Positions 10,325-55,872 of a DNA stretch of 64,000 bases are shown in pieces. Origin of the DNA: Microthyrium microscopicum (taxonomy: Eukaryota). How positions within the stretch are numbered: the first letter of the stretch is position 1; each line of letters opens with the position of its first letter. The notes below the pieces were generated by a model. The model was not told the origin of the DNA. It ran no database searches and saw only the letters and a program-made list of their open reading frames with translations. The position numbers and the translations under genes were made by a program. The stretch is from positions 186,001 through 250,000 of the forward strand of contig MU004236.1 in the NCBI GenBank assembly GCA_010405405.1, given 5' to 3'.

Positions 10325-13300
10325 ATGCCCTGGCAACCCCTACCAGGCATCGCATTCGGCGTCTGCGTCTACCCTTTCCAACCCGCCGGATCTGCCGAAC
10401 TACCTCTACACATTGGCGATGAACTCTACGTTGTCGAACAAGGCGGAAAAGATGGTTCCTGGTACCGCGGATACCTAGTCGCTCCGCCATCCGTATTGGC
10501 GGGTTTAACAAGCGTCAAAGGACAGACTCTCGAGGCGCGCATATTTTCTGGCATATTTCCAAGATGTTGTGTCGAAATTCGCGAACTTTTGGTCGATGGA
10601 GAGCGTAGTGCGCCTGGTGCATTGAATGGCAATGAAAGTTTGGATGCCAATGAAGAGATCCCACCCGTTCCGGCGAATGGCGTCTTGACTCCATCGAACA
10701 GCGCTTCACCCGATGCAAGAGCAAGCTATGGTGCGAACAAGTCGCTAGCGAGATTGGATGCTCCTGGCGAGGGGACTAGCATCCCAGTGTCGCGTTTGCA
10801 CAAAGCTAAGAGCTTACGGCTCACCCAGCGCGTGTCAAGCCAAACCGTTCGATCGGACGCTCTGGCGCAGAATTTACCAATGTCGCCAATGTCAGTGATA
10901 TCCCGCGATCCGAACGCTCCCAGACCACCTGCGCCCTTGCCGGCACTCAAAGTTGGCGATGAAACGCAAACGTCTGCGCAGGAACCACTGGTAGATGAAA
11001 TCGCATCATGTCTAAGGGAGTGGTACACTGCGAAATTACACGAACTTTTACTGGCTAGGCGGTACACAACTTTGGATCGAATGGCTGTCTTGGTCAAGAG
11101 ATTGGACACTGTTCGACGACAACTTTTACATCGCGTACTCACGGATCAGGAATTAAGAGCACTACGAGAGAAGACTGTCTGGGATTTGGTGACCGGTAAC
11201 AAAATGCTATGTGGAGAAGTAATTGTGCGGGATCCTCTTCAAAATGGCAGGATACTTACTGCGGATGATTCTCCCATCGAGGTTACAAAGCTTCAGTCAA
11301 TGATGAGCTTACTGCACGAGAAGCCGGTCCACCACACGGATGAGCATATGCCGCATCATCTTCTGGTGCAGTTCCCGGGCTCATTTGGGGAACTCTCCAC
11401 GCCCAAAACTATTGCAGTTCATCTCTGCATCAAAACTCCAGGAGGCCAAATTTTACCCGTTTCCGAGGTTCACGCTATTAATATCTCCGCTACCACTGGC
11501 AGCGGATCAGAAAACACCATGAAGACCTTGTTCATTAATATTGGTTCGACAGATATCGGCGAAGGAGCAGGAGCAGGCTCAGTTCTTTTCGTCGCATTTA
11601 AAGTCATTGTCAATGAGCCACTCCGGGCTGCTCAGACACAAGCATTCCCTCGCGAAAGCACCTCGAGTAATGGAACCAACGACTCAAGGGCAGGACATGG
11701 AACTCTGAAAGGCCGAAGAAGTTTGATGTGGAGCAGAAGCGGAGATCGCGGCGTCACTAGTCCAAAGTCACCAGAAATGCGGACGATCGCCGAAGAGTCG
11801 AGGCCGAACACGAAGAGTGACAAGATGGTCAAGAGGACAGTTGCGGCCGCTGTGATTCGAGTTGATCATCTACTGCGCGAAGATGTGGAAAAGGAAGAAC
11901 AACTCACATTCTGGTCCTCGTCAACTTTCCCGGTGGAAGAAGGTGTTGAGGGCGAAGCTAAGTGGGATAATGTGCTAAAGGAAGTGCTTCCAAGTAATTC
12001 TGGCGAATACCGAAAATACCCATTCCCAAAAGCAGTCAAGGTTTTTGTCAAGCCATTCATGGATCTGGATGCGGATGCTCTAGTCAAGAAAACACCTACT
12101 CTACTACAACATATCAGTCAAACCCGGAAAATCGGCTTCATTGGCGCTCCAAGCAAGCAAAGAAGTGACATCTATTTGTCTCTTTCTGAGATTGTTATTC
12201 CACGGCACGCTTTTCTGGCACACCCAAAGAATGGAGCTGTACCCATGGGCGCACTTTCTGGGCAGGCAAATTTACAACTAACGCTCGAAGTACGGAGATC
12301 CAATGGCCACCGCATAGAAAACTGCATTTTCCCGTCCTGTAATAGCCAAGGACATACTGCGTGGCGTACAACAGCTTGCGAAAAGGGCGAGCCATGGAAT
12401 CTAACCATCCGACTGGCCATCAGTCCTGAAGATGTTCCTGGATCCCATATCGTCATGAGCGTAGCTGATCTACCCGGCTTCCCATTTGCGCTCTGCTGGA
12501 TGCCTCTGTGGAACGAAGGTGCTTTCATCGAAGATGGAGAGCATTCATTGTCGCTATATCAATATGACGAATACACATCAAGCATAATATCCGGGCGTGG
12601 CGCATATCTTGCGCTGCCCTGGCAAGCGATGAAGAACGATGACCACAACGGCGCAACCATGACGAGGCTGCAAGTTCGAACTTTTCTCTGCAGCACCAAG
12701 TATTCTCAAAATCCGACACTGTTAGGTGTTTTGAAATGGAAAGTTCAGCCTCCTGGAACTCTGCCAGGGCTGCTTAAGAAGTTCAGCTTTGTGCCAGAGA
12801 TTGAGATTGTAAAATTGCTGAATGAGGTTTTTGACGCTCTTTTCGAAATACTGGTGGATACTCAAGGCAGTGAAGAGTATGAAAGATTGGTCTTTACTGA
12901 TCTCGTCTTCGTTTTGGGTATTGTCCATGATCGAAGATTCAAGTTGGCTCCTCTTGTTGACAAGTACGCCGAGGAAAAGTTCCGATATCCAGTTGCTGGC
13001 TTGTGCTTAGTAAAAGCATTCATCCGGCTGCTTTCTACTCCGACTGATGCCGAATTCTCACAAACTCTTCGAGCAGCTTTCAAGGTCGCTAGACATCTGT
13101 TCAAGTTCATTGGCGCTGCCTGGAGCCATCAAGAGAGATCCGATCGCGAGAACAATCGAGGAAACCGGAAAAAGTTGGCTTTCTTGAAAGATGTGAGCGC
13201 TATTTTCGAAAGTCTGGAATCACTGATGAAGAACCCAAACCCGGTATTGATAGGCACCAAAACCTTGGTTGTTCAACATCTACACACATGGCTTCCAGAG

Positions 13301-16300
13301 CTTGTACCAATCATGCCAGCAGCAGACATCCTTCAAGTTGCCATCAGTTTTATAGACTCCTGCAATAACGTCAAAGGAAAACTAATCCTGTACAAGCTGA
13401 TCTTGATCATCAATCTTAGCAATATCGATGCCATCGATTATCCAGAACACAGACGCAATCTCCGAGTCAAGACTGTAAGATGGCTCTCAGACTACTGGGG
13501 CAAGACGGAAGACTACAGCGAACAGTGGAAAGAACAAGTTCGGTTATGTTGTTCAGTCATCGCCTCCCAGCTTAACGAGCTGGGGGATGAGGGCTATGAA
13601 TATATTCCTAAGCTCATCGATTCGTATCGGGTCATTCAGATATCTGATCGACCTGCGAAGAAACAACTCTCCCTCCTCTTTCCAACGGCTTATCCATTTC
13701 CCTCTCGGCCAATTCAAGAGACGACGGAATTTGACGAAGCATTGGCAGAAATTGCAGCTGTTCTAGCTGGAATCACTAGTCTTCCAACTGGCATTCATCT
13801 TGACATGCCGCTCACGGACAAGGCAGAATTCCTATTCAGTGCGCTACAGATGTATATCTCTGTTCTCGACGGCGAAGCTTATCCACAATCATGGCTCAGT
13901 GTCCACATCTATCATCATAAATCGACCATGCGTAGCTTGGAGAAATTGTCGAGTATTTTGATCGACTCATTCCTTCCCCATCCCGATGACGCTGAGATGT
14001 TCGACACCAATCTGTGGAGAACCTTCTTTGATGCCCTTCTTAAATTGGTTGGCAGCGAGTCCCTCGCGCTGGAGACATTCCCTGAGCAAAAACGCAGAGC
14101 AGTCTGGAAAATCGCTGGGGATGTTCGAGAGCAAGGCGCTGATTTACTCCGCCGGACTTGGGAAGCCATTGGCTGGGAGACCAGCCCTGAAGACAAGGAA
14201 AAGTACGGTCTTGAAAAGCTGGGTGGATATCAAGTACAATACGTACCTGGATTGGTTGGTCCCATTGTGGAGTTGTGTCTCAGTGTTCACGATAGCTTGA
14301 GACGAGTCGCCATCCAAGTTCTCCAGACAATGATCATTAGTGAGTGGACGTTGAACCGCGATTTGACATTACCGGAAGCCGAAATTATCGAATGCCTCGA
14401 CAAGCTTTTTAAGAGGAAGACAATCAACGAAAATGTCATGCAGAAGCAATTTCTCGCAGAACTTCTTGAGCTTTTCAGACCTCTGGCCGAGCGAACGCAG
14501 GATGATGAGCTGCTGGATGCTGTGAAGAACCTTATTGCGACTATTGATGAGCTTCTTGATCATCTCATTGCTGTGCACGCCTCGGATGGAACAAGTGAAG
14601 CAGTTAAGCTTATGGAGACATTGCATCTCATGGAATTCCTCAAGAATATGCAAAAGGTCGACATCTTCATCGGGTATGTTCATAAGCTGGCCGATATTCA
14701 AGCAATCGCAGGCAATTGTACTGAAGCTGGTCTCGCATTACGCCTTCACGCCGACTTGTACGAGTGGGATCCTTCATCAGTTGTGGAACCATTAGAAGAT
14801 CCACATTTCCCATCACAGACGTCTTTCGAGCGGAAAGAGCAGCTCTACTTCCAAATGATTAAGCTCTATGAGGATGGACAGTCCTGGGACAATGCTTTGG
14901 GTAGCTACATGGAACTCGCCGATCAATATGAGCACAACATCTTCGACTTTGCCAAATTAGCTAGAGCACAACGAGCCATGGCAACAATTTACGAGGGTAT
15001 CAGTCGTGGTCAGCGAGACAATCCAAGATACTTCAGGGTCGTATTCCACGGTCTTGGTTTCCCTGTCACTCTTCGGGACAAGGAATTCATCTACCAAGGT
15101 CTTGCTACGGACCGCATGGCATCATTCCTTGATCGTATGCAGCGCTCATATCCTAATGCTTCTGTTCAAAGCGGTGGTGCCGGTGGAGTCTCGGGATATG
15201 ACGAGGGACAATCTGTGCATGTCTACCCAGTCACTGCGCAAAAAGACATCAATCATCCCATCTATCGTCGGGCAAAGGTTCAGCAATCGGTTCGAGACTA
15301 CTATCTTTTGTCGAGACCGCATCAGTTTGCTTCATCATCCAGGCGGAAGCCAAGTGATGGTGCAGTCAAGGATCAATCCGTTGAAAAGACGATATTTACC
15401 ACGGCTGAGGCGTTCCCGACAATACTCAAGAAAACGGAGATTGTTGAAATGACCACCATCTCCCTCTCTCCTCTTCAAAGCGCTATTGAACGCACCACTC
15501 GCAAGACAGCAGAATTGGCTGCTTTCGAGAAGCGTCTCACTGCTGGCGAAGACACCGCTGCTCGTGAAGCCTTGACCACAGCTCTGGAGTTTGCAGTCGA
15601 TCCATCTAGCCCATCGAGCGTCGCAAACTACAGACCCATGCTCGAGGACGAATCTGAACAAGACAAGAAGCACAAACAGCGTGATTCTCACACCGATAAC
15701 GAGGACTCGGAAGACAGCGATGAAGAAGATGAAGATGAAGAGGACGATGAACCAAAACCACTCTCTCCCCTCCAACACGCCCTCAAGATTGCCCTTTTAG
15801 ACCATGCTCTCACCATCAAGCGCTGTCTCGCCCATTTCCAACGGACCGCACACCAAGCCACCCGTGCCGATCTATCACAACGTAAGTCCCTCCCAATATC
15901 TCCAATCCTCCCCACTGCTAACTCACATCTAGGCTTCGAAACAACCTTCGCCCCAGAACTCGCCAGTCTCTCCGGCCCACCCGGAACCTCCGACCCCGTC
16001 GAATCAACCTCCTGGGCCGCCGCCAACCACGGCCCCACCCCACCACGCAGCGGCACCATCTCACCCGCCTTCCAAAATCCCCGCCACGCAAACCCCCTCC
16101 ACAAATCAAAAAGCAGCGGCAAAAAGTCTCCCGCCCGCACGCGCAGTGAGAATAAACACCGTCTTAGCTACATCTTTACGAAACGTGCTTCTACTGCTGG
16201 TGCTGATGATGCCCCTGAAGCTGTCAATGGTGGTGGTGATTATAGACAGCACCTTGACAGTGGGGAGGGCGAGGCTAGTCATGCGGGCGCGGCGGATGAT

Positions 16301-16456
16301 CGTCCGTCCACGAGACAGAGTACGGAGAGTACGAGTGAGAGTGTGAGATCGAGGGTGGGGAGTGTTAAGAAGAGGTTGAGTTTATTGGGGATGGGCATGC
16401 AGAAGAAGCCGAGTAAGGCTAGTGTTATGGGGAATGATGTTGTTAGGGAGGAGTGA
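10325..16456 (+). CDS. DCK1: DOCK180-family Rac/Rho guanine nucleotide exchange factor (SH3, C2-DOCK, DHR-2)
   Basis: 2043 aa ORF with an N-terminal SH3 (ELPLHIGDELYV..WYRGY..GIFP) and a DHR-2 region (YFRVVFHGLGFP..LRDKEFIY). There is a probable in-frame 51 nt intron at 15882-15932. Confidence 0.93.
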   Translation: MPWQPLPGIAFGVCVYPFQPAGSAELPLHIGDELYVVEQGGKDGSWYRGYLVAPPSVLAGLTSVKGQTLEARIFSGIFPRCCVEIRELLVDGERSAPGALNGNESLDANEEIPPVPANGVLTPSNSASPDARASYGANKSLARLDAPGEGTSIPVSRLHKAKSLRLTQRVSSQTVRSDALAQNLPMSPMSVISRDPNAPRPPAPLPALKVGDETQTSAQEPLVDEIASCLREWYTAKLHELLLARRYTTLDRMAVLVKRLDTVRRQLLHRVLTDQELRALREKTVWDLVTGNKMLCGEVIVRDPLQNGRILTADDSPIEVTKLQSMMSLLHEKPVHHTDEHMPHHLLVQFPGSFGELSTPKTIAVHLCIKTPGGQILPVSEVHAINISATTGSGSENTMKTLFINIGSTDIGEGAGAGSVLFVAFKVIVNEPLRAAQTQAFPRESTSSNGTNDSRAGHGTLKGRRSLMWSRSGDRGVTSPKSPEMRTIAEESRPNTKSDKMVKRTVAAAVIRVDHLLREDVEKEEQLTFWSSSTFPVEEGVEGEAKWDNVLKEVLPSNSGEYRKYPFPKAVKVFVKPFMDLDADALVKKTPTLLQHISQTRKIGFIGAPSKQRSDIYLSLSEIVIPRHAFLAHPKNGAVPMGALSGQANLQLTLEVRRSNGHRIENCIFPSCNSQGHTAWRTTACEKGEPWNLTIRLAISPEDVPGSHIVMSVADLPGFPFALCWMPLWNEGAFIEDGEHSLSLYQYDEYTSSIISGRGAYLALPWQAMKNDDHNGATMTRLQVRTFLCSTKYSQNPTLLGVLKWKVQPPGTLPGLLKKFSFVPEIEIVKLLNEVFDALFEILVDTQGSEEYERLVFTDLVFVLGIVHDRRFKLAPLVDKYAEEKFRYPVAGLCLVKAFIRLLSTPTDAEFSQTLRAAFKVARHLFKFIGAAWSHQERSDRENNRGNRKKLAFLKDVSAIFESLESLMKNPNPVLIGTKTLVVQHLHTWLPELVPIMPAADILQVAISFIDSCNNVKGKLILYKLILIINLSNIDAIDYPEHRRNLRVKTVRWLSDYWGKTEDYSEQWKEQVRLCCSVIASQLNELGDEGYEYIPKLIDSYRVIQISDRPAKKQLSLLFPTAYPFPSRPIQETTEFDEALAEIAAVLAGITSLPTGIHLDMPLTDKAEFLFSALQMYISVLDGEAYPQSWLSVHIYHHKSTMRSLEKLSSILIDSFLPHPDDAEMFDTNLWRTFFDALLKLVGSESLALETFPEQKRRAVWKIAGDVREQGADLLRRTWEAIGWETSPEDKEKYGLEKLGGYQVQYVPGLVGPIVELCLSVHDSLRRVAIQVLQTMIISEWTLNRDLTLPEAEIIECLDKLFKRKTINENVMQKQFLAELLELFRPLAERTQDDELLDAVKNLIATIDELLDHLIAVHASDGTSEAVKLMETLHLMEFLKNMQKVDIFIGYVHKLADIQAIAGNCTEAGLALRLHADLYEWDPSSVVEPLEDPHFPSQTSFERKEQLYFQMIKLYEDGQSWDNALGSYMELADQYEHNIFDFAKLARAQRAMATIYEGISRGQRDNPRYFRVVFHGLGFPVTLRDKEFIYQGLATDRMASFLDRMQRSYPNASVQSGGAGGVSGYDEGQSVHVYPVTAQKDINHPIYRRAKVQQSVRDYYLLSRPHQFASSSRRKPSDGAVKDQSVEKTIFTTAEAFPTILKKTEIVEMTTISLSPLQSAIERTTRKTAELAAFEKRLTAGEDTAAREALTTALEFAVDPSSPSSVANYRPMLEDESEQDKKHKQRDSHTDNEDSEDSDEEDEDEEDDEPKPLSPLQHALKIALLDHALTIKRCLAHFQRTAHQATRADLSQRKSLPISPILPTANSHLGFETTFAPELASLSGPPGTSDPVESTSWAAANHGPTPPRSGTISPAFQNPRHANPLHKSKSSGKKSPARTRSENKHRLSYIFTKRASTAGADDAPEAVNGGGDYRQHLDSGEGEASHAGAADDRPSTRQSTESTSESVRSRVGSVKKRLSLLGMGMQKKPSKASVMGNDVVREE

Positions 16457-16846: not shown

Positions 16847-18706
16847 CTAAGCTTCCCAGCTAATCCGTATGGGTCTTCCAGGGTCAAGATACGTATCTTC
16901 GAAGGTGATTTTGCAGTCCACAACCTTTGGGTCTCTTCTCTGTCCGGGCTTCCATTCAGCAGCTGGCGGATTTGGCTTAGGTTTGTCCTTGAGAGCATCG
17001 TATTCACGACCTAGTTCCTTGATGCATTCGCAGTGTTCTCCGGGTTGTTTACCTTGACCATCAGTAGCACTAAGCTTTCCACCGGATAGTATGGTCTCCC
17101 ACATTATCAGCAATTGTGCAGATTTCCGCTGTTTATAGTGGCTCTTTTTGATCCGCTGTGTATGAACACATGTCTCACAATCCATTGCCAAGATATGCAA
17201 AGCTGTCCGACCTCTCTCGTCCACCAAAGTTGGATCCGCACCGTGGCAGAGAATCAATCTCATGAGATTATACCCAGAACGCCAAAGTCTGCTTTTTGAA
17301 GCCATGCCAAGCAATGCACTGCCAAAGGCTGTTTCCTCGCTGGGCCCGATGTCAAAGAATGGCATTGTTAGATTCGGATTGCTGCCAAAGTTGAGGAGTA
17401 CGTGCGCTGAACTAATGTTGATAAAGTTCCAATAAGCGAGAGCGAAGTATAGAGGAGTTGTATATGTCTGAGAGAAACTTGCACCAAGCATAGAACTCGC
17501 GGCCGCTCGAGAGCCACTGTACATTTCAAAAGCTTGTTCGTCGAGAATTGCCAATAACGCTTCCTCGCCATGATCCGACCGTGCCGTGTGTAATACATGC
17601 TTTAATGCATCTCCATCTCTGTCTTTTAGCGCGCGGGCAACTTTGCCTTCGATCGTTTCCGAGTCAACGACGGGATAATATTGAATTCCTGCAGGGTCGC
17701 GTCCACATAAAAGGATATTTTGAGCCTGAAGGAATAAGTCCTTGTCAGCAGGCTTCATTTTCTTGGGTTCTCGCACATCATCTTCCAATACTTCCCCTGC
17801 CTCATCGTCAGACTCTTTTCTCTTGGCCGCTCGGATATTACCCTGCGATGATTGCTTTGACTCTTGTTTGGGCCGGGAACTGGATCGTGGATGGCGAGTT
17901 CTTCGGTCTTTTACTTCTTGGAGAGCGGCTTTCAATCTATCCGTCTTATTCTTCGCCGCCTTGGTCGCTTTTTCTGCCGCTTGCTTTGCCTTTTCTGCGT
18001 CCTGGTTGGCCTGTTTGGCGGCTAGGAGCAGTTCTTTGATGCCAGGCTCGTCCAGTATGCTCTCATCGAGTTCATCAAGCTCGCCCAAAGCCTTCATCAA
18101 GAGTTTCTGTATCTCTTCTTCAGACTCCACGAATCCAGGGCCAACATCAAGGAAACTTTCCGGTTGAAAGCGCTGCATCGACGCGGTTGGATCCCAGTAC
18201 ATCTCAAATTCACTCGTAAACTGGGACACCATTAAACGCCCATCCTCGGTATCGCAGTCGAGGCGAATGTTCCACTCGACGCCTTGCGTGATCGCTGACT
18301 TGGAGATGTTCGATGAGCCCACGTAAGCGACATGGCAATTGTTATTCATCCGAAATATCCATGCTTTAGCATGGAACGTGGGCCAATTTGGCTTGAAAAC
18401 TTTGATTTGCACATTCTCCAGCAGCGAAAGGCTCCAAATTGCTGCAGCGTCAGAAATGCCGAGTTGCATTGTGGTGAGTATTCGAACATGAACACCGCGG
18501 GCGACTGCTCCTTTGAGGTTCTCAATGAGGATATCGACACCTGTCTGCTTGATATAGGAGCATATGATATCGAGACTTTGGAGGCCGTGAGACCCCAGAT
18601 CTGGTTTTAGGTAATCTTCGTACAAGTTCTTGGTGATGAGAACACGCCGGGTCTCAATCGGCGTTCCCTGCGTTGCAAGTGGTGAGGGTTTTGCTATAGA
18701 CACCAT
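16847..18706 (-). CDS. PLD/HKD-superfamily nuclease-like domain + coiled coil + ankyrin repeats (intronless)
   Basis: Single HKD-type motif FHAKAWIF...AYVGSSNISKSAITQGVEWN, preceded by VHVRILTT. A Lys/Ala/Glu coiled coil follows, then ankyrin-like segments (TTPLYFAL, LLNFGSNPN, LILCHGADPTLVDERGRTALHILA). The first ATG is at 18706 and the frame is open to 18778; the true start is uncertain. Confidence 0.8.
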   Translation of the reverse strand: MVSIAKPSPLATQGTPIETRRVLITKNLYEDYLKPDLGSHGLQSLDIICSYIKQTGVDILIENLKGAVARGVHVRILTTMQLGISDAAAIWSLSLLENVQIKVFKPNWPTFHAKAWIFRMNNNCHVAYVGSSNISKSAITQGVEWNIRLDCDTEDGRLMVSQFTSEFEMYWDPTASMQRFQPESFLDVGPGFVESEEEIQKLLMKALGELDELDESILDEPGIKELLLAAKQANQDAEKAKQAAEKATKAAKNKTDRLKAALQEVKDRRTRHPRSSSRPKQESKQSSQGNIRAAKRKESDDEAGEVLEDDVREPKKMKPADKDLFLQAQNILLCGRDPAGIQYYPVVDSETIEGKVARALKDRDGDALKHVLHTARSDHGEEALLAILDEQAFEMYSGSRAAASSMLGASFSQTYTTPLYFALAYWNFINISSAHVLLNFGSNPNLTMPFFDIGPSEETAFGSALLGMASKSRLWRSGYNLMRLILCHGADPTLVDERGRTALHILAMDCETCVHTQRIKKSHYKQRKSAQLLIMWETILSGGKLSATDGQGKQPGEHCECIKELGREYDALKDKPKPNPPAAEWKPGQRRDPKVVDCKITFEDTYLDPGRPIRISWEA

Positions 18707-19683
18707 CTCCACGGAATCGTTGCTAATGGGTACTATTGCGTATTGGGGATTTTCGAAAGAATTTTTAGTATCAAGCAATGCACGTTGTGGACTTTGGAGC
18801 TGATTCTGTAGACCTTGATTTCGGCCTCAAGATATCGGAGATGATGCGGTAAGATTGAATAGATTCTTGCGAGGAAGATACAGTAAAGCATTAAGTACCA
18901 TGGATAATGCCGAATCTACCTGTGTTGGGCTTCACCTATAAACTATAACTGTGACGGTAGAACAGAGAGTCTTAGCGCTCAGAGTTTGATATCAATTTGA
19001 GCGCTCAGTACTTGAGATCAGTCCAGCGATCGGTGTTGGGTCAAAATAAGGAAGCACCGTCCCATGATACTTCGAAAAAGGAGAAGTAAGTTGAATTTAG
19101 TAGCTACGAACAACGTTCACAAACTCTCAGGGGTAGAGAAGACTCGCTCAAGTGGTTCTCACCATTGTTCAACTCACCTGGTCATGCTTTCAATCATACA
19201 CTGGACTACTTCATACCATCAGTGGAAATGGAAGGCGACTGTACCTGCTACAATTGTCTTGAAGTGTTATCGCTAGTTTGTCTCCATGGCGAAGAGAACA
19301 GAAAGAACCCGAAGGATTTGTAGCGCAACGGTACTGCATTTTGGGTACGTATGGCTGTGTGGCAATATAAAACCGCTATGATGAACTGGGGGCTCAAGGA
19401 GGTACAAAACATCAAATACTTGAGATGAGAACCGTAGTATGCTACCAGGCCATGTATTACAAGCCAATTTCCTACACACCGTATTCTAGTAAGGTGAATA
19501 ATTTCCAATCCATATACCGCCTCATGTCTTGAAGTACAGTTCATATTATGACACCTAGATAAGCACGCCATGAAAAGATATGTCAATATGAACATGTCCT
19601 TGAACAAGTCAGTTTTCTACCAAAGCTCTTTCCTACCAAGGCTCCTTCCTCTTCTAGTCATCACCAATCCCTCAATACCTAAC

Positions 19684-20109
19684 CTATCCCTCCAAACTAG
19701 TCAACCGATACTCATTCCCACCCCTCAACGGCTTCCCCTGACCCCCCGGAATCCCAACAAACTGACACTGACCCACACTATCCCTCGTCGCCACACTAAA
19801 CTTGATCGCCGAGCCAAAATCACACGCATCGCCATCCGCCGCACTGCCCACCTGGAGCGCAGTGTTCGTGCCAATGAATTGGTCGTCAATCTCGTCAATC
19901 AACAGAGATGAGTAGCTGTCGCTAGGGAAGCTGTAGCATCCGTGGTCCCCGTAGACGGTGCGGGTGTAGATGGTGGGTGGCACGGTGGTGGTGCAGTTGT
20001 TGTCGGAGAAGAATATCACGTTGATGGATGGGCCGGAGTCCCGTTTGGTTATGGGGGTTGCGAGGGCGGTTGTTGCTAGGAGGGCGGATAGGAGGGCTGG
20101 GGTATACAT
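19684..20109 (-). CDS. Small secreted protein with a Kex2 (KR) propeptide and 4 Cys
   Basis: MYTPALLSALLATTALA signal followed by TPITKR. The 141 aa ORF has GC-rich coding-like codon usage, and a TATA-like element lies near 20217-20224. Confidence 0.8.
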   Translation of the reverse strand: MYTPALLSALLATTALATPITKRDSGPSINVIFFSDNNCTTTVPPTIYTRTVYGDHGCYSFPSDSYSSLLIDEIDDQFIGTNTALQVGSAADGDACDFGSAIKFSVATRDSVGQCQFVGIPGGQGKPLRGGNEYRLTSLEG

Positions 20110-25703: not shown

Positions 25704-26186
25704 ACAAAAGACGATTGAAGCACAACAACGGGAGCGGATGGGGGATGGGATGATGGGATGATGGGGGGAAAGCGCGGATGATGGATGGATAACGGGTTGG
25801 GATTGCACATGCAGCAGCAGCAGCACACAGCGGAGCTCAGCCCTGTTGCCTGCCTCCTCTAAGCTCTTAATAATTCCTCGAATCCTACTCCATACCTCCA
25901 AACCTTCTCACATCAATCTGCGCCAATTCCGCTTGATTTCCCTGCTATTCAAGTACATATCATCCCGATGGGACATTGAATAACACCACCGAAAGACGAA
26001 TGAGGTCCTTTACGGAGTTGAGATTGATTTCGCCCAATTTTCAAGCACATCGGTGCAGTTTAGCTGTGGCTCAGAATAGCAATAGCTCTCCTTCACGACA
26101 GTACCTACCGCACAGAACCCCTACCAAAGGCTAGTAAAATTCGTTGAGTCTTTTATCGGATGCATCCACAAGTAAGTCTTTAACTA

Positions 26187-29100
26187 TCTCTGCTGCGCGT
26201 TCTGTGCTACACAGGGCAAAAATCTGGCCTATTGATTTAGCTACAGATCTAGGAATCTGATTGGATCGCATAATAGGATTGAGGAGTGCGTTAGTATGTA
26301 GATTTATATGTAATTAGACTATTAGTAGCTATAAAGTAATACTAGTTTTATAGTGCTTCCTAGTGATCTAAAGATAGGCTAAAATATATAGATTTTAGAG
26401 TAGGAATTCCTTGCTAAGGATATATTATAATTAATTAATCTTTATACCGTTCGAAAGCTTAAAAGAGCTAGATTCTTATTAAATTATTAGCAAATAGCCT
26501 TATCGTCATTATTCTTAATAATTATGTTAAGTAAATGCCCTATATTAGTAGATTTAGATCCTATCGCTACTTAATGCTCTACTCGTAGAAAGAAGATTAA
26601 TAAATTAATACCTAAGACGCTAGTAGATATACCTACTTAGATTATAGGTAAAATAAGCTAAAATAACGCTCTAGTTCTAGGAATAGCTCTTATAGTATCT
26701 TAAGATATTTATACCTTTTAGACACTCGCTAGAAGTCTAATATAGAGCTAAAATTAAAGCTCTTTAATAGTAATTCCTAGCTCTTTAATTAGCCATATAG
26801 AAGAGATAGATAATAGGGCAAACGCTAGCTAGAGATCTTAATAGCCTAGATTTAACGAGTTAACTATATCTTAAGTTCTAGAGCTACTATTATAACTAGA
26901 AGGTAGTTTAATTACGCTAATTTAAATTAATAGTAAGCTAATACTAATTATCTCTACTAAGATTAGTAAATATAATATTAAAAAGGGAGGGAATAAGCCT
27001 TAACTAAATAAGATAACTATAGAAGTATTTATAATACTTTCTAATAGTTAGAAAGAAGCTCTAAAGTAGAAGAATTAGCGTGCTAAAGAATAATATTATT
27101 CTCTAGGCTTAATAACGTCTATATAGACATATTTTTAACTTCCTATTAAAGAAATAGGCAAGAATCTATTTATGCTATTCTTTTTTAAGGAGGATAGACT
27201 AGATATTAAATAGGAACTAGTAAAGGTTAAGAAACGCTTCTTTAATTATTTTAAAATAGGTACTATACTACCTAAGCTAGTTATACCTAAATAGAAGATA
27301 ATGTAGATAGTAAATAAAGCTAATAATACCTTTAAAGAGTTTAGGATGCTAAAAGAACTAGAGGCTTAAAATAATTCCTAAAAAGATGCTAATAATACTA
27401 AAATTAATATTATTATTACTAAGAATTAACTCTATAATAATGCTAATACCTATAGTATATTATTTAGTACTTATAGTTACTATGAATTACTTTACTCTAT
27501 AGTAAAGCTTAAGGGATATTGCTACGTTATTAGAAGTACTAACTAGTACCTAGTTATTAATTTAGGAACCTTCTACTGTTAGGCTAATATCGTTAGTCCT
27601 ATAAAGCCTTAAGAAAGCTTTAATAAACGCCCTCTAGATAAGATTTTAATAAAGATCTTTGTTCTTAGTACTAGTAAATAGTTTAATAAGAATTCCTATT
27701 CTAGGAGTAAGCATAGTAGTAAAGATAAGAATAATTTAGAGTACTTTAATAGTAATAATCTATATTTTAGCTTTATGCTAGTAGATATTTAGGCCATAGT
27801 AGTTATAGGCATAGAGGAGCTAGTAGTTAATACTATAACCCTAAATATTAATATTCTACGTACTAGTAGTCTATTACTACGTACGCTATTAGATTTAATT
27901 ATTTTTAATCTTAATAAAGAGTTAAAGATGTTTAAGGAGTAGTTATCTTATTATATAGGCATTAAGACGTCTTAGTTTAAATAGGTAAAGTTAATTCTAA
28001 GTGTTTGTTAAAGTAAGTGTATAAGAATTAGTTAAGTAGTAGTAGAAAAAAATGTTAGGGTCTTTACTATTGTTAACTCTAATATTAAGAAGAACGCTAT
28101 AAGCTATTTTATTGTTTAAGTTAAGGAATAGTATAATTAGGCTTAAAAGGAAGCTAAATAACTTATAGAAGAGAGTTAGATAGAATAAGATAGTTATAAG
28201 CTATTGCTAAATATTAAATTTACTATGTCTAAAGTGCTTTATTACTTACTAGTTAGTATTGAGTTCCTTTAATCCTAACTTAAGATATTCTTTAAAGAGC
28301 TAACTTTCCTATCTTTTTTCTTAATAAAGCCTATTATTTAATTAAAGCTACTTTTTTAAATTACTAAATAATTGCTTAATAGGATTGAAATTAGGGCTAT
28401 AGGGAGGTAAGAATACTAGTTATATACTAAAATAATTAAAAAGAGCCCTTAGATCTTTAGCTTAGTAAAAGCGCGCGTTATCTATTATAATGACTAAATT
28501 CCTAGGCGTAGGGAAGAGAGAATACTTTAGAATTAGATTATATTTATACTAGTAGGTAAATCCCTTATTGTTAGTATTGTATTAATATAGATCTACTGCT
28601 AAAATTCCTTATGTAGTATATGCTAGTAGTATATTCTATTTCTTAGAGCTTTAAAGTAGTAAGAATATAGCGCATTCTATATTTTTTAGGCTCTATCCTA
28701 TCCTATAGGCTAAATAGCTAGTTCCTGCGCTGTATTTATCTATATAAATAATTTAATCTAGATAATAATTATTTATTTCGTTATAGAATTCTTATTAGAG
28801 GTGTAAAGATTGTTAAATAGCTATATTATAGCACTATTTTAGTATAAATACGATAAGAATTAATTAAATAAAGCTATAGTAACGACTTACCCTCTTTTTG
28901 GTCTATTTTATATACTTTAGCGCTTAGTATACTATATTATGGCTTACTTTAACGTTAAAGACATTCATTAGGTATTCTACTATCTTGAATTAAGTAGAAT
29001 TAGGCTTTAATATTAGATATTCTACTAATATGATTATTTTTAAAGAATTAATTAAGGGTCGTCATTAAATAACTCTAATAGTGTTAAAGGAATTAGTTAT

Positions 29101-29500
29101 TTTAAGCTTTCTATGCTAATAACTAATAATCTTCTAAGAATATTCTAGGGCGCTAGTAATCTTGCGATAAGAGTACTCTATAAGAATTATATCTTATACC
29201 TAATAGCGTTTAAATTTATTAAGGTGCCTACCTAAATTTATTATAGGAAGAGATGCTATAATAAGATTAGTTAAAACGAGTAAGATTTAAGGATTTGAAT
29301 AATACTAAGAATGTTATAAAGTTAGATATTAAGATATATTATTTATAATAATATATAGAATTGCTAAGTACGCTATTATATAAATTTGTACTGTAGCATA
29401 CTCCTCTAGTCTAGGGTCTCCCCTAATTAGGATCCTAGATCTGTAGCTGAATCAATAGGCCAGATTTTTGCCCTGTGTAGCATAGAACGCGCAGTAGAGA
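26187..29500. mobile_element. RIP-degenerated DNA transposon (~3.3 kb) with ~65-75 bp terminal inverted repeats, flanked by TA
   Basis: Left end TA|TCTCTGCTGCGCGTTCTGTGCTACACAGGGCAAAAATCTGGCCTATTGATTTAGCTACAGATCTAGGA matches the reverse complement of the right end (...CTAGATCTGTAGCTGAATCAATAGGCCAGATTTTTGCCCTGTGTAGCATAGAACGCGCAGTAGAGA|TA). The interior is extremely AT/TpA-rich and has no ORF in the track. TIR mismatches are TG->TA and CA->TA. Confidence 0.9.
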
Positions 29501-30107
29501 TACTAGTAACCTGCAGAGATGAGAGTCTTTATGGAGGTAGTTGTCGAAGATCGCAATGAAGTGCTCCCAAGTGCTCCCTTAAATGCATCATTCTGGCTTG
29601 TACATTAGAGTACAACAGGTATCTCTTTACGATATTCAACCATCTATTCTACACTACTTTGAGACAATGTTGCAATAAATGTTGATGAACGGATTACAGC
29701 AAACTCAGAGCATACTACGATACGGTCTTTGAAGCAGGCGATGGCACTACGATGGCACTATACGACCTCTGCACATGTCAAGCTATTTCCCCGCTTATGG
29801 AACCAATCCATCACATATTTGAGCCCCATCGGGCTGAAGTATGATTCAGAACTACATCATACATGGACTTATGGAGAGCATCAGCGGATCGCCAACATGC
29901 CTTTCACTGCTAAAACAAGACACACTACTCACCCTACACCTTTTCGCTGGTATCTGCGCTCAAATTTTGCTGAGCTATTGCTTCAAGACAACATGCTACC
30001 ACGATCTCGCTCTTTTGAAAGAGATCATGTTCGAGTTGTTCGATGTTGACTGGGCAAAAGCGACAACACCCATCATGGTCCCAAGAGAGAAGACAGCAGC
30101 AGCACGA

Positions 30108-53909: not shown

Positions 53910-55586
53910 TCACACGAGAACGAACTCTTCTGTCTCGAAAGGAAGAGGCTCTTTATGCAACCGGTCCAACCATGAGATATCTTCATGATCATAGTCCGGC
54001 TGAGCTTGTCGGCGCAATTCTACAAAGCCTTCTCCGTGCATTAGTTCCTTGACAAAGCACTCCCCAAGAAACGTGTACGAGTCTCCGAATGGACGTAACA
54101 GCAGTGGCACTCTACCTCCGAGCAGTAGGCAGATCATGTCTCCGCCTCTGACAGAATGAGGTGCCATTCCAAAACTTCCCTTCGCCGATATGAAGAATTT
54201 TCGGTCCTTCATACCTCTTGCAACCAGTGTTGGCCTAAGCAATTTATTGTCAAGATTTTTGGGCAAGGCGTGCTTTAGGAGAAAGAAGCCATCGATTACG
54301 TCGTCAACAGCTGTTTTTAATGACTGCTCTGTCACCCTGTGTATATCGCCGGGCTTCCTGCCAGCGCATTCATTGATTCTTTCAAGGACAGATTGATTGT
54401 TTCGGTAGAATTCGTCGGGTTTGAAAGTATACCTGAATGTATCGATGTGTACCCCACTCAGGTGGAGCGTCCTTATACTATCGGTAGGCTGAATGATAGC
54501 CTTTGAGGACCCTGTAGCCGAGTGCTTTCCACCATGCGGCCAGGGAAGGAACGTACCCGTAGCTTTTTCTGATTCTCGCCAGTCAGGTACCCATGATGGA
54601 AGATTTCCTGTCGGCCTGGATCCCTCCACCGTGGAATGACTGGCCTCGAGGCAATGGAGTGAGCCAGTCGAGATGATGCGATGCTTAGCTACTGACGCAA
54701 ATACCTCTTCGAAAGGCTTCTCATAGTCGGGTAAGACTTGCAAACCATCCGTGGATATCTCACGAAGTGCATACACAAGATCGCGAGGATCTGTGGCTCC
54801 TACTCCACGCCGCCATGGAAGCATTTGTGAGAGCGACTGATTTTGGCTGGCGAGGTGTGAGAGCGACTGATTTTGGAGCGGAAACCCATCCTTAGCCATG
54901 CGCAATATCTCTATAGCTTGCAACGCAGAGCCTAAAAGTTCAGGCCTCTGGTCAAGGAGATCGTTAACAATATCGCGCATCTCTGTGGCAGGCAGACACC
55001 TAGAGCCACAATGTATTTTGACTTCGTCAGCTAAGAGGAATTCTTGGAATGTCCAGGCCCTGGTGAACCAGGACCGTCCAAGCAAGCTTTTGATCGCCAA
55101 GTACTCCAGATCCGTGGTTTGTTGGCTTTCGATATCGTCACCGGCCTCAAGCTCGTCTGTATGCCTTTGAAAGACCGAAACGGCCAATCTGGACTGCGCA
55201 TCTTCTTCTCCAAGCCAGACCAGCACGCATGTTGCGCGTTTATATATACGGGCCATCAATTTGACCTGCGCGCTGCGTTCTGCAAGATCTTTTTGGTTGA
55301 CGCTTATGCTATCGGCCCATAGATATCGAGGCTGCGTTTCGTCACGAAAGCGCAGTAGTGCATCACTGAGGTTTGCAGGTATCCCGAGCTCTTTTTCATC
55401 ACATACAATGGGCACTAGATTTGTCGTGTCTCCCCAGACATAAGAAATCGCTTCAAAGGACCAAGAACTGTTGAAGGGAACTTCTTCGAGAGTACATTGT
55501 ATTGCTTCGCCATCGGTGAGAGGGAGTAACTTCAACAGGCGAAAAGATGTTTCCGCAGACAGTGGCCGGTATACATATTTGTCCAT
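53910..55586 (-). CDS. HET-domain protein (HET-6-like heterokaryon incompatibility family)
   Basis: Motifs FRLLKLLP, FEAISYVWGD, YLWADSISVNQKDLAERSAQVKLMARIYKRA, WFTRAWTFQE, ATDPRDLVYAL, LPSWVPDW and GDMICLLLGGRVPLLLRP..GECFV..LMHGE. Intronless. Confidence 0.93.
   Translation of the reverse strand: MDKYVYRPLSAETSFRLLKLLPLTDGEAIQCTLEEVPFNSSWSFEAISYVWGDTTNLVPIVCDEKELGIPANLSDALLRFRDETQPRYLWADSISVNQKDLAERSAQVKLMARIYKRATCVLVWLGEEDAQSRLAVSVFQRHTDELEAGDDIESQQTTDLEYLAIKSLLGRSWFTRAWTFQEFLLADEVKIHCGSRCLPATEMRDIVNDLLDQRPELLGSALQAIEILRMAKDGFPLQNQSLSHLASQNQSLSQMLPWRRGVGATDPRDLVYALREISTDGLQVLPDYEKPFEEVFASVAKHRIISTGSLHCLEASHSTVEGSRPTGNLPSWVPDWRESEKATGTFLPWPHGGKHSATGSSKAIIQPTDSIRTLHLSGVHIDTFRYTFKPDEFYRNNQSVLERINECAGRKPGDIHRVTEQSLKTAVDDVIDGFFLLKHALPKNLDNKLLRPTLVARGMKDRKFFISAKGSFGMAPHSVRGGDMICLLLGGRVPLLLRPFGDSYTFLGECFVKELMHGEGFVELRRQAQPDYDHEDISWLDRLHKEPLPFETEEFVLV
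54826..54876. repeat. 30 bp-period tandem duplication inside the HET gene
   Basis: TGTGAGAGCGACTGATTTTGG occurs at 54826-54846 and 54856-54876; the protein reads QNQSLSH-LAS-QNQSLSQ. Confidence 0.8.
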
Positions 55587-55872
55587 TTGATAGTAAAAGT
55601 TTGAGGTAAGCATAGAGGAGCAAGTTTGGTACCCAAACATAGGGGGGAGAAGCTAGAGGCCGCTAGATTGATTACACGAGAGGATCTAGTAGCGCGGCCG
55701 AAAAGTAACAGACCTTAGCCGCGTGGACTAACGGCTTCTGGACATGACATAAGCCGGCTGTCAGTGCAATCAATCTTGCAACCTACATCATGAAACCTAC
55801 CAATCCAATACATGTTTTCTACGTGCACATAGTATAGATAGTATGTGAATCTCCAAGTCAAGACTTTCTTGT

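Follow-up and report, generated by a model that had tools for sequence, protein, structure and literature searches.

A restriction-enzyme-type phospholipase D domain joined to an ankyrin-like tail in the fungus Microthyrium microscopicum: a putative dimeric nuclease and its relatives

Nucleases of the phospholipase D (PLD) superfamily with a single HxK motif require two chains to build one active site. Among them are the restriction enzymes of the BfiI, NgoFVII and NgoAVII R-protein type, dimeric single-HxK enzymes in which the PLD domain is combined with a B3-like DNA-binding domain, and the eukaryotic Zucchini/PLD6, likewise a single-HKD dimer; PLD3 and PLD4 show the same fold and HxK chemistry with two HKD halves per chain. 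Fungal NOD-like receptor (NLR) type effector-sensor proteins are composed of an effector domain, a NACHT or NB-ARC domain and ankyrin (ANK), WD40 or TPR repeats. In the SauUSI type IV enzymes (PADLOC mREase_IV; PDB 7CLG) an N-terminal single-HxK PLD nuclease domain is joined to a superfamily 2 (SF2) helicase/ATPase and a DUF3427/SRA-like reader. According to a report on SauUSI (PMC7913695), this enzyme dimerises via its PLD domains, the catalytic site is made up of the HxK motifs of two protomers, and H119A was used as a nuclease-dead mutant. Here we describe an open reading frame (ORF) of the fungus Microthyrium microscopicum whose N-terminal head belongs with these restriction enzymes and whose tail is ankyrin-like. 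It is located on the 2.4-Mb contig MU004236.1 (assembly GCA_010405405.1) within positions 186,001 to 250,000 of the forward strand, a stretch of 64,000 nt that is referred to as the window and whose own numbering is used throughout.

The protein encoded by this ORF (the query) shares with SauUSI a homologous N-terminal PLD nuclease domain, an acidic stretch following this domain and the kind of dimer interface described for SauUSI (PMC7913695), which in the query is predicted. In contrast to SauUSI it carries neither an SF2 helicase/ATPase nor a DUF3427/SRA-like reader, its host is a eukaryote and its tail is ankyrin-like. The PLD nuclease fold is also common to the query and the BfiI/NgoFVII type (2c1l, E 1.2e-6; 4rct, E 1.9e-5), and both are dimeric single-HxK proteins, by prediction in the case of the query, but the B3-like DNA-binding domain is missing from the query. 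Zucchini/PLD6 and PLD3/PLD4 are structural neighbours with the same HxK chemistry (Foldseek E ~1e-6 to 1e-5; Zucchini 4gel/4gem), and the single-HKD dimer of Zucchini is matched by the dimer predicted here; unlike the query they have no ankyrin tail, and none of them was detected by the PDB sequence search. With the fungal NLR-type proteins the query has in common an enzymatic N-terminal head and C-terminal ankyrin or WD40 repeats, the class of which varies among relatives, whereas a helix and a disordered linker are found at the position of the NACHT/NB-ARC oligomerisation domain.

The open reading frame and its PLD head

The ORF is located on the minus strand (16847..18706) and comprises 619 codons plus the stop codon, uninterrupted from ATG to stop. 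No intron is required, as had been proposed from the sequence, and two homologues described below (P0009 and P0067) align with it in one piece. The original prediction had placed the gene at 16847..18778 and left the strand unstated; the ORF was correctly recognised, but the upper end of this span lies 72 nt upstream of the ATG. The stop-to-stop frame extends over 16847..18826 (minus strand), and no other ATG was found between the in-frame upstream stop and M1. All peptides quoted in the original prediction (DIICSYIKQTGV, VRILTT, LGISD, FHAKAWIF, YVGSSNISKSAITQGVEWN, AAKRKE and PKKMK) are present in the translation. Stop codons make up 0.045 of the codons when the six frames of the window are taken together, and at this frequency an open stretch of 619 codons would arise by chance with P ~4e-13. 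A tblastn search yielded no second copy of the gene within the 64-kb window. The neighbours in the window carry DOCK, Fungal_trans, WD-like_fungi and HET domains and thus provide a fungal setting, and as judged from its sequence the ORF encodes a real fungal protein of 619 amino acids (aa).

The annotated gene model (P0001) is considerably shorter. It comprises 451 aa and starts at M169 of the query (ATG at 18200..18202, minus strand), with residues 1-47 of P0001 being 100% identical to residues 169-215 of the query, so that the whole PLD domain is omitted. Surveys of annotated proteomes would therefore miss the head. Other annotated models may drop it as well, and the extent of the family has to be determined by searching genomes in six frames.

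The head is a single-HxK nuclease-type PLD domain (aa 21-190; 18137..18646, minus strand), an assignment based on PLDc_2, mREase_IV, AlphaFold2 and Foldseek. The Pfam model PLDc_2 (PF13091) matched aa 44-171 with E 2.3e-13 and 50.6 bits, compared to a cut-off of 27, and RE_NgoFVII (PF09565) gave 22.6 bits, slightly under its cut-off of 23.8, so that membership in the latter family could not be assigned. The best PADLOC model was mREase_IV (PDLC03659, E 3.9e-23), with aa 44-175 aligned to model positions 49-179 of 945; the match is limited to the nuclease head of the model, i.e. its first 179 of 945 positions. When the PDB was searched by sequence, the sole nuclease matched was SauUSI (7clg, E 1.6e-7, aa 49-186). 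An AlphaFold2 model computed from a 35-row alignment reached a predicted local distance difference test (pLDDT) score of ~85-98 over aa 21-210, and here again SauUSI 7clg was the best structural match of the head in Foldseek (E 8.8e-10, root mean square deviation ~3 Å), followed by 7e0m, BfiI, PLD3, NucT, Nuc and Zucchini (E 4e-7 to 1e-5). All Foldseek matches listed for the head are PLD-fold proteins (E 8.8e-10 to 3.8e-5), and we therefore assign the PLD fold to it. The agreement of mREase_IV with SauUSI, found both by sequence and by Foldseek, bears out the earlier proposal of a PLD domain of the bacterial restriction/helicase type as opposed to a two-HKD phospholipase D, Tdp1 or Zucchini. 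Judged from these comparisons, the head is a phosphodiesterase domain of the PLD superfamily with a single HxK motif, and it falls into the lineage to which the nuclease heads of the type IV and type II enzymes SauUSI, BfiI and NgoFVII belong.

The residues expected in the active site are strongly conserved. The HxK catalytic motif H112-A-K114 (18365..18373, minus strand) and the GSSN...G.EWN motif at aa 130-146 (18269..18319, minus strand) contain six positions, H112, K114, G130, S131, N133 and E144, that do not vary among the 35 sequences aligned, both fungal-type and bacterial, and a further six, S132, S135, A138, G142, W145 and N146, with a conservation of at least 90% in the same alignment. 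H112 and K114 are also invariant in all 14 rows of a second alignment.

Two copies of aa 20-190 were folded together three times and compared with controls. Of 30 homodimers with solved structures, 21 reach the mark used to judge the homodimer score, and none of 23 proteins solved as single chains does. All three runs with the query gave a score of 0.91, compared to 0.57 for the best control, with a contact agreement of 100% and a partner pLDDT of ≥93. The predicted interface consists of residues 109-115, 129-132 and 141-147 and hence coincides with the HxK, GSSN and EWN motifs. On the basis of these models the head is predicted to homodimerise through its catalytic residues.

From the acidic stretch to the ankyrin-like tail

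The region following the head carries none of the domains known from the bacterial enzymes. Neither helicase, ResIII nor DUF3427 models matched the ORF in Pfam or NCBIfam, in agreement with the absence of a helicase stated beforehand, nor did DEAD, Helicase_C or the DUF3427/SRA-like reader (PF11907) in Pfam; NCBIfam yielded only coiled-coil matches at chance level. The head is instead followed by an acidic stretch at aa 191-222 (18041..18136, minus strand), in which 11 of 32 residues are D or E and the net charge is -9. The acidic linkers of BfiI and SauUSI are discussed as possible regulators in PMC7913695. The stretch in the query is placed as in these linkers, and by analogy it might have a regulatory role as well.

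The acidic stretch leads into a long A/K/E/Q-rich helix with coiled-coil-like character (aa 221-269; 17900..18046, minus strand), which AlphaFold2 predicts with a pLDDT of 81-94. Pfam matches in this region were weak and under the cut-offs, with alanine-zipper and helical hairpin models. The coiled coil noticed in the sequence thus finds its counterpart in one predicted long helix. A basic linker follows (aa 270-325; 17732..17899, minus strand) that is predicted to be disordered (pLDDT <50) and contains KRK at 295-297 and KKMK at 315-318. The stretches AAKRKE and PKKMK, which had been taken to resemble nuclear localisation signals (NLS), are indeed present, but similar motifs arise readily when linkers are shuffled: they occur in 10 of 17 family members, and when the same linkers were shuffled 500 times, 59 to 396 of the shuffled versions contained them as well. 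A function of the basic linker as NLS is at most tentatively suggested by its sequence.

Regarding the C-terminal part, we tentatively assign aa ~350-590 (16937..17659, minus strand) to a divergent, ankyrin-like helical repeat domain, with the clearest repeat at aa 473-513 (17168-17290, minus strand). All ankyrin models of Pfam stayed below threshold (Ank_4 21.2 bits versus 22.7, Ank 18.7 versus 21.1, Ank_2 17.6 versus 27.3). Designed ankyrin repeat proteins (DARPins) match aa 473-508 in the PDB sequence search, and in the Atlas comparison of language-model features the tail scored 0.96-0.97, the best ten family-bearing matches all being ankyrin clusters; an Atlas search with the whole protein had a top score of 0.81 and is a lead at best. 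A separate model of the tail, computed from a 3-row alignment, reached a mean pLDDT of 59.7 and a predicted template modelling score (pTM) of 0.63. In Foldseek this model gave 17 matches at E ≤0.001, mostly ankyrin or designed repeat proteins with template modelling (TM) scores of 0.3-0.6. The tail is conserved with P0009 and P0067, and 37 columns of the 3-row alignment are invariant. The ankyrin repeats of the original prediction can thus be retained in the form of divergent, ankyrin-like repeats, a reading to which DARPins, Atlas, Foldseek and the relatives P0010 and P0021 contribute, but not as repeats that pass the Pfam cut-offs. A C-terminal search returned P0001 and otherwise only P0008, a multi-ankyrin protein that we rejected as a relative because its similarity is generic to ankyrins.

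Fungal relatives and bacterial homologues

To identify relatives, 1.84 billion representatives were searched exhaustively in HMMER, with aa 1-215 as the query. This yielded 1902 matches at E ≤1e-3, of which 742 had E ≤1e-10 and none E ≤1e-30. All relatives discussed here were drawn from the best 150 of the 1902 matches, so that size and spread of the family are lower bounds. Among the best 40 matches, 19 carry a ResIII/helicase region (mostly together with DUF3427, the SauUSI architecture), two combine the PLD domain with canonical ankyrin repeats and 19 show the PLD domain only. Once helicase-type fragments were excluded, at least 19 helicase-less relatives with an N-terminal PLD domain remained. 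A taxon is named for two of the 19, and both are fungal: P0158 is a hypothetical protein of Letrouitia transgressa, and P0013 is K444DRAFT_300450 of Hyaloscypha bicolor E, listed as 'Phospholipase D-like do...' in UniRef.

Two of the relatives are full-length counterparts. P0009 (668 aa) aligns with aa 23-591 of the query at 27% identity (E 3e-42) and P0067 (634 aa) with aa 29-586, also at 27% identity (E 9e-39); helix, basic patch and tail are common to all three proteins. With at least 19 helicase-less relatives, these two counterparts among them, the architecture is not unique to the query. Other relatives carry different tails on the same head. P0010 and P0021 combine it with canonical ankyrin repeats (strong ankyrin matches), and in hhalign the similarity of this pair to the query tail extends over one repeat (E 1e-4, 31 columns); in P0054 (569 aa) a fungal-type PLD head is followed by a WD40-type beta-propeller at aa ~415-565, in the place of the ankyrin repeats. 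The tail of an eight-member subgroup (P0011, P0018, P0019, P0022, P0027, P0030, P0043 and P0158) has no similarity to the query tail that hhalign could detect (E 0.22). As far as can be told from these comparisons, the query is a member of a small family, found in filamentous ascomycetes, with a constant PLD head and a tail that may be ankyrin, WD40 or of no known type.

In the eight-member subgroup the PLD domain is immediately followed by a conserved cluster of Cys and His residues, C..D....C.H.EC (alignment A3, columns ~385-410), which is possibly a metal-binding knuckle. A similar C..C..C pattern is located after the PLD domain of P0021, P0054 and P0056; the query is devoid of it.

Homologues of the head are very numerous in bacteria. 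A pattern search covered the genomes of 185,579 bacterial and archaeal species, and a relative is encoded at no fewer than 566 of the 603 matches listed. The best 80 bacterial loci show 32-41% identity and come from Streptomyces and other Actinomycetota, Clostridium, Flavobacteriia, Acidobacteriota, Chloroflexota and Myxococcota. One bacterial PLD segment, in a metagenome-assembled genome of Balneolaceae (L070, 4001-4381), has an early in-frame stop and could be a pseudogene or the result of a sequencing error.

In a FastTree phylogeny of 158 PLD domains the 20 fungal-type rows, which comprise the query and its 19 relatives, are located on one side of a branch with support 95 and the 138 others on the opposite side. 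A quick IQ-TREE analysis was run on 77 selected rows (20 fungal-type, 35 of 93 helicase-labelled and 22 of 80 named loci); like the first tree, it is unrooted. It again recovered one fungal group (Shimodaira-Hasegawa approximate likelihood ratio test, SH-aLRT, 89), next to two others, one of the DUF3427 type with 46 rows (94) and one that consists of ten helicase-fused proteins of the ~820-aa type (97). The branching order of the fungal and the two bacterial groups has a support of 13, and we therefore rejected the assignment of a bacterial donor lineage. In neither tree were the fungal sequences seen nested within a bacterial clade or phylum; they form a separate deep branch.

The three parts of the ORF were compared with six other ORFs of the window in G+C content, G+C content at third codon positions (GC3) and a codon-use score, and none of these values falls outside the range of the six. 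A recent transfer was rejected on this host-like composition, which is a weak test, since the codon-use score hardly separates reading frames. The horizontal acquisition put forward in the original prediction was thus not borne out: with the fungal rows on a deep branch of their own and a composition like that of the host, any transfer would be old and its direction deduced from the distribution only. From these data an old bacterial origin of the fungal head is plausible, and they are compatible with the fungal family having arisen once.

Possible functions and genomic setting

Taken together, we consider it probable, with considerable reservation, that the protein is a dimeric and probably nuclear PLD-type phosphodiesterase or nuclease, with a head of the restriction-enzyme type that is gated or targeted by its tail. 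The two HxK/GSxN half-sites of a homodimer would form one metal-independent active site, and its putative activity would be the cleavage of phosphodiester bonds in nucleic acids. The ATPase motor and the modified-DNA reader of the bacterial enzymes would have been lost, with acidic stretch, helix, basic linker and ankyrin-like domain in their place. The tail may bring the nuclease to a protein partner, or may keep it inactive until this partner is met. As the head is constant and the tail variable across the family, we infer that targeting or gating is conferred by the tail; nuclease activity, substrate and nuclear location we infer likewise.

The kinds of domain involved are already known, and at least one relative is automatically named PLD-like in the databases. 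No description of a restriction-type PLD head in a eukaryote-specific architecture, or of the fungal family, was found in the literature searched, from which most subscription journals were missing, and both architecture and family appear undescribed there. Should the protein prove to be an active nuclease controlled by a tail that binds proteins, it would join the growing number of bacterial defence modules that eukaryotes have put to new use, and it would be a candidate fungal factor for the restriction of foreign DNA, for genome defence or for programmed cell death.

Several observations weigh against a nuclease of this kind. The acidic residue of the classical HxK(x)4D motif, at position K+5, is replaced by R119 in the query; according to PMC7913695, SauUSI has E at this position. 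Relatives show E, Y, L, H, K or V there, and as the position is variable in bacterial relatives too, it does not define the subfamily and R119 weakens the case little. The dimer score may echo PLD nuclease dimers with solved structures that are already known to the model, and is to be read as likeness, not as binding. Enzymes of the PLD fold can act on lipids or on other phosphodiesters. The annotated gene model lacks the head, whose expression is therefore putative. The NLS-like motifs are no commoner in the family than in shuffled linkers. Regarding the tail, every Pfam ankyrin model is under its cut-off, the C-terminal part of the full-length AlphaFold2 model has a pLDDT of <50 and no confident fold, and the C-terminal fold of the separate model can be trusted with moderate confidence.

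A special case of the gated nuclease, and the view of the original prediction, which also named drive, would be an executor of immunity, allorecognition or cell death. Its tail would detect a protein that is non-self or an altered form of self and thereby set the nuclease free to destroy nuclear or invading DNA, in the manner of an NLR analogue without a nucleotide-binding oligomerisation domain (NOD). The repeats of fungal NLRs include those of the ankyrin and WD40 classes, and different repeat-class tails on one conserved head would fit with this idea, as would the homology of the head to anti-phage type IV restriction enzymes and the small size and high divergence of the family (best 150 of 1902 matches). 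On the other hand, no NACHT or NB-ARC domain was matched in the ORF by Pfam at E ≤1, the gene is located between a DOCK gene and ordinary genes and not in an incompatibility cluster, the nearest HET ORF being 35 kb away, and the same literature contained no link of such proteins to fungal immunity. We regard this function as unlikely, although worth keeping in mind. A wider and somewhat more doubtful version would be a class of NOD-less fungal immune or allorecognition nucleases, with a bacterial methyl-directed head captured early in the filamentous ascomycetes and interchangeable sensing tails; a foreign or altered protein would here unleash a dimeric nuclear DNase, resulting in cell death or in a barrier to DNA, viruses or transposons.

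A housekeeping role in nucleic-acid processing, i.e. in repair, recombination or small-RNA pathways, as Zucchini/PLD6 has for piRNAs, with the ankyrin tail docking onto a conserved complex, is in our judgement distinctly improbable. Single-HKD eukaryotic PLD nucleases with cellular roles are found among the structural neighbours (4gel/4gem and PLD3/4, see above), and the host-like composition is in line with such a role, but the head resembles SauUSI more closely than it does Zucchini or PLD3, and a family with only 19 helicase-less relatives in the best 150 of 1902 matches, deep divergence and changing tails is not what this role would suggest.

It is very improbable that the PLD part is a relic and only the 451-aa C-terminal protein is made, with the upstream 168 codons as an untranslated remnant or recent pseudogene. 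The start of the annotated model P0001 at M169 would be explained in this way, but the 168 codons upstream of it are open (P ~4e-4 by chance), all catalytic and structural invariants are kept, head and tail are united in one protein in the two distant homologues P0009 and P0067, and M1 has a purine at -3 and a G at +4, as read from the sequence. Least probable of all is a lipid phosphodiesterase of the phospholipase D or cardiolipin hydrolase type in place of a nuclease, since in spite of the shared superfamily chemistry and of a phospholipase D structure (7e0m) as third Foldseek match (E 4.4e-7; weak sequence match, E 0.0036), the nearest proteins by sequence, profile and structure are restriction nucleases, and general Pfam and NCBIfam scans, carried out without a transmembrane predictor, matched no lipid-binding domain in the ORF.

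The gene for the gated or targeted nuclease that we favour converges tail-to-tail with a DOCK-family ORF on the plus strand (10325-16456; 2043 aa, intronless, with DOCK_N, DOCK-C2 and TPR_DOCK), and the two stop codons are 390 nt apart. Its upstream neighbour on the minus strand (19684-20109) encodes 141 aa that match no Pfam model; as its N-terminus is hydrophobic and resembles a signal peptide, it is a candidate for a small secreted protein. The HET ORF mentioned above is located at 53910-55652 on the minus strand (580 codons; HET domain E 1.2e-33). On the plus strand an ORF at 35371-36195 matches the Pfam family BSP, 'Peptidase of plants and bacteria' (E 2.6e-71), the name of which suggests an unusual taxonomic distribution. 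A block of ~4 kb at 26001-30000 has a G+C content of 0.29-0.31, compared to 0.44-0.51 elsewhere in the window, contains no ORF of ≥150 codons and could be a repeat degraded by repeat-induced point mutation (RIP).

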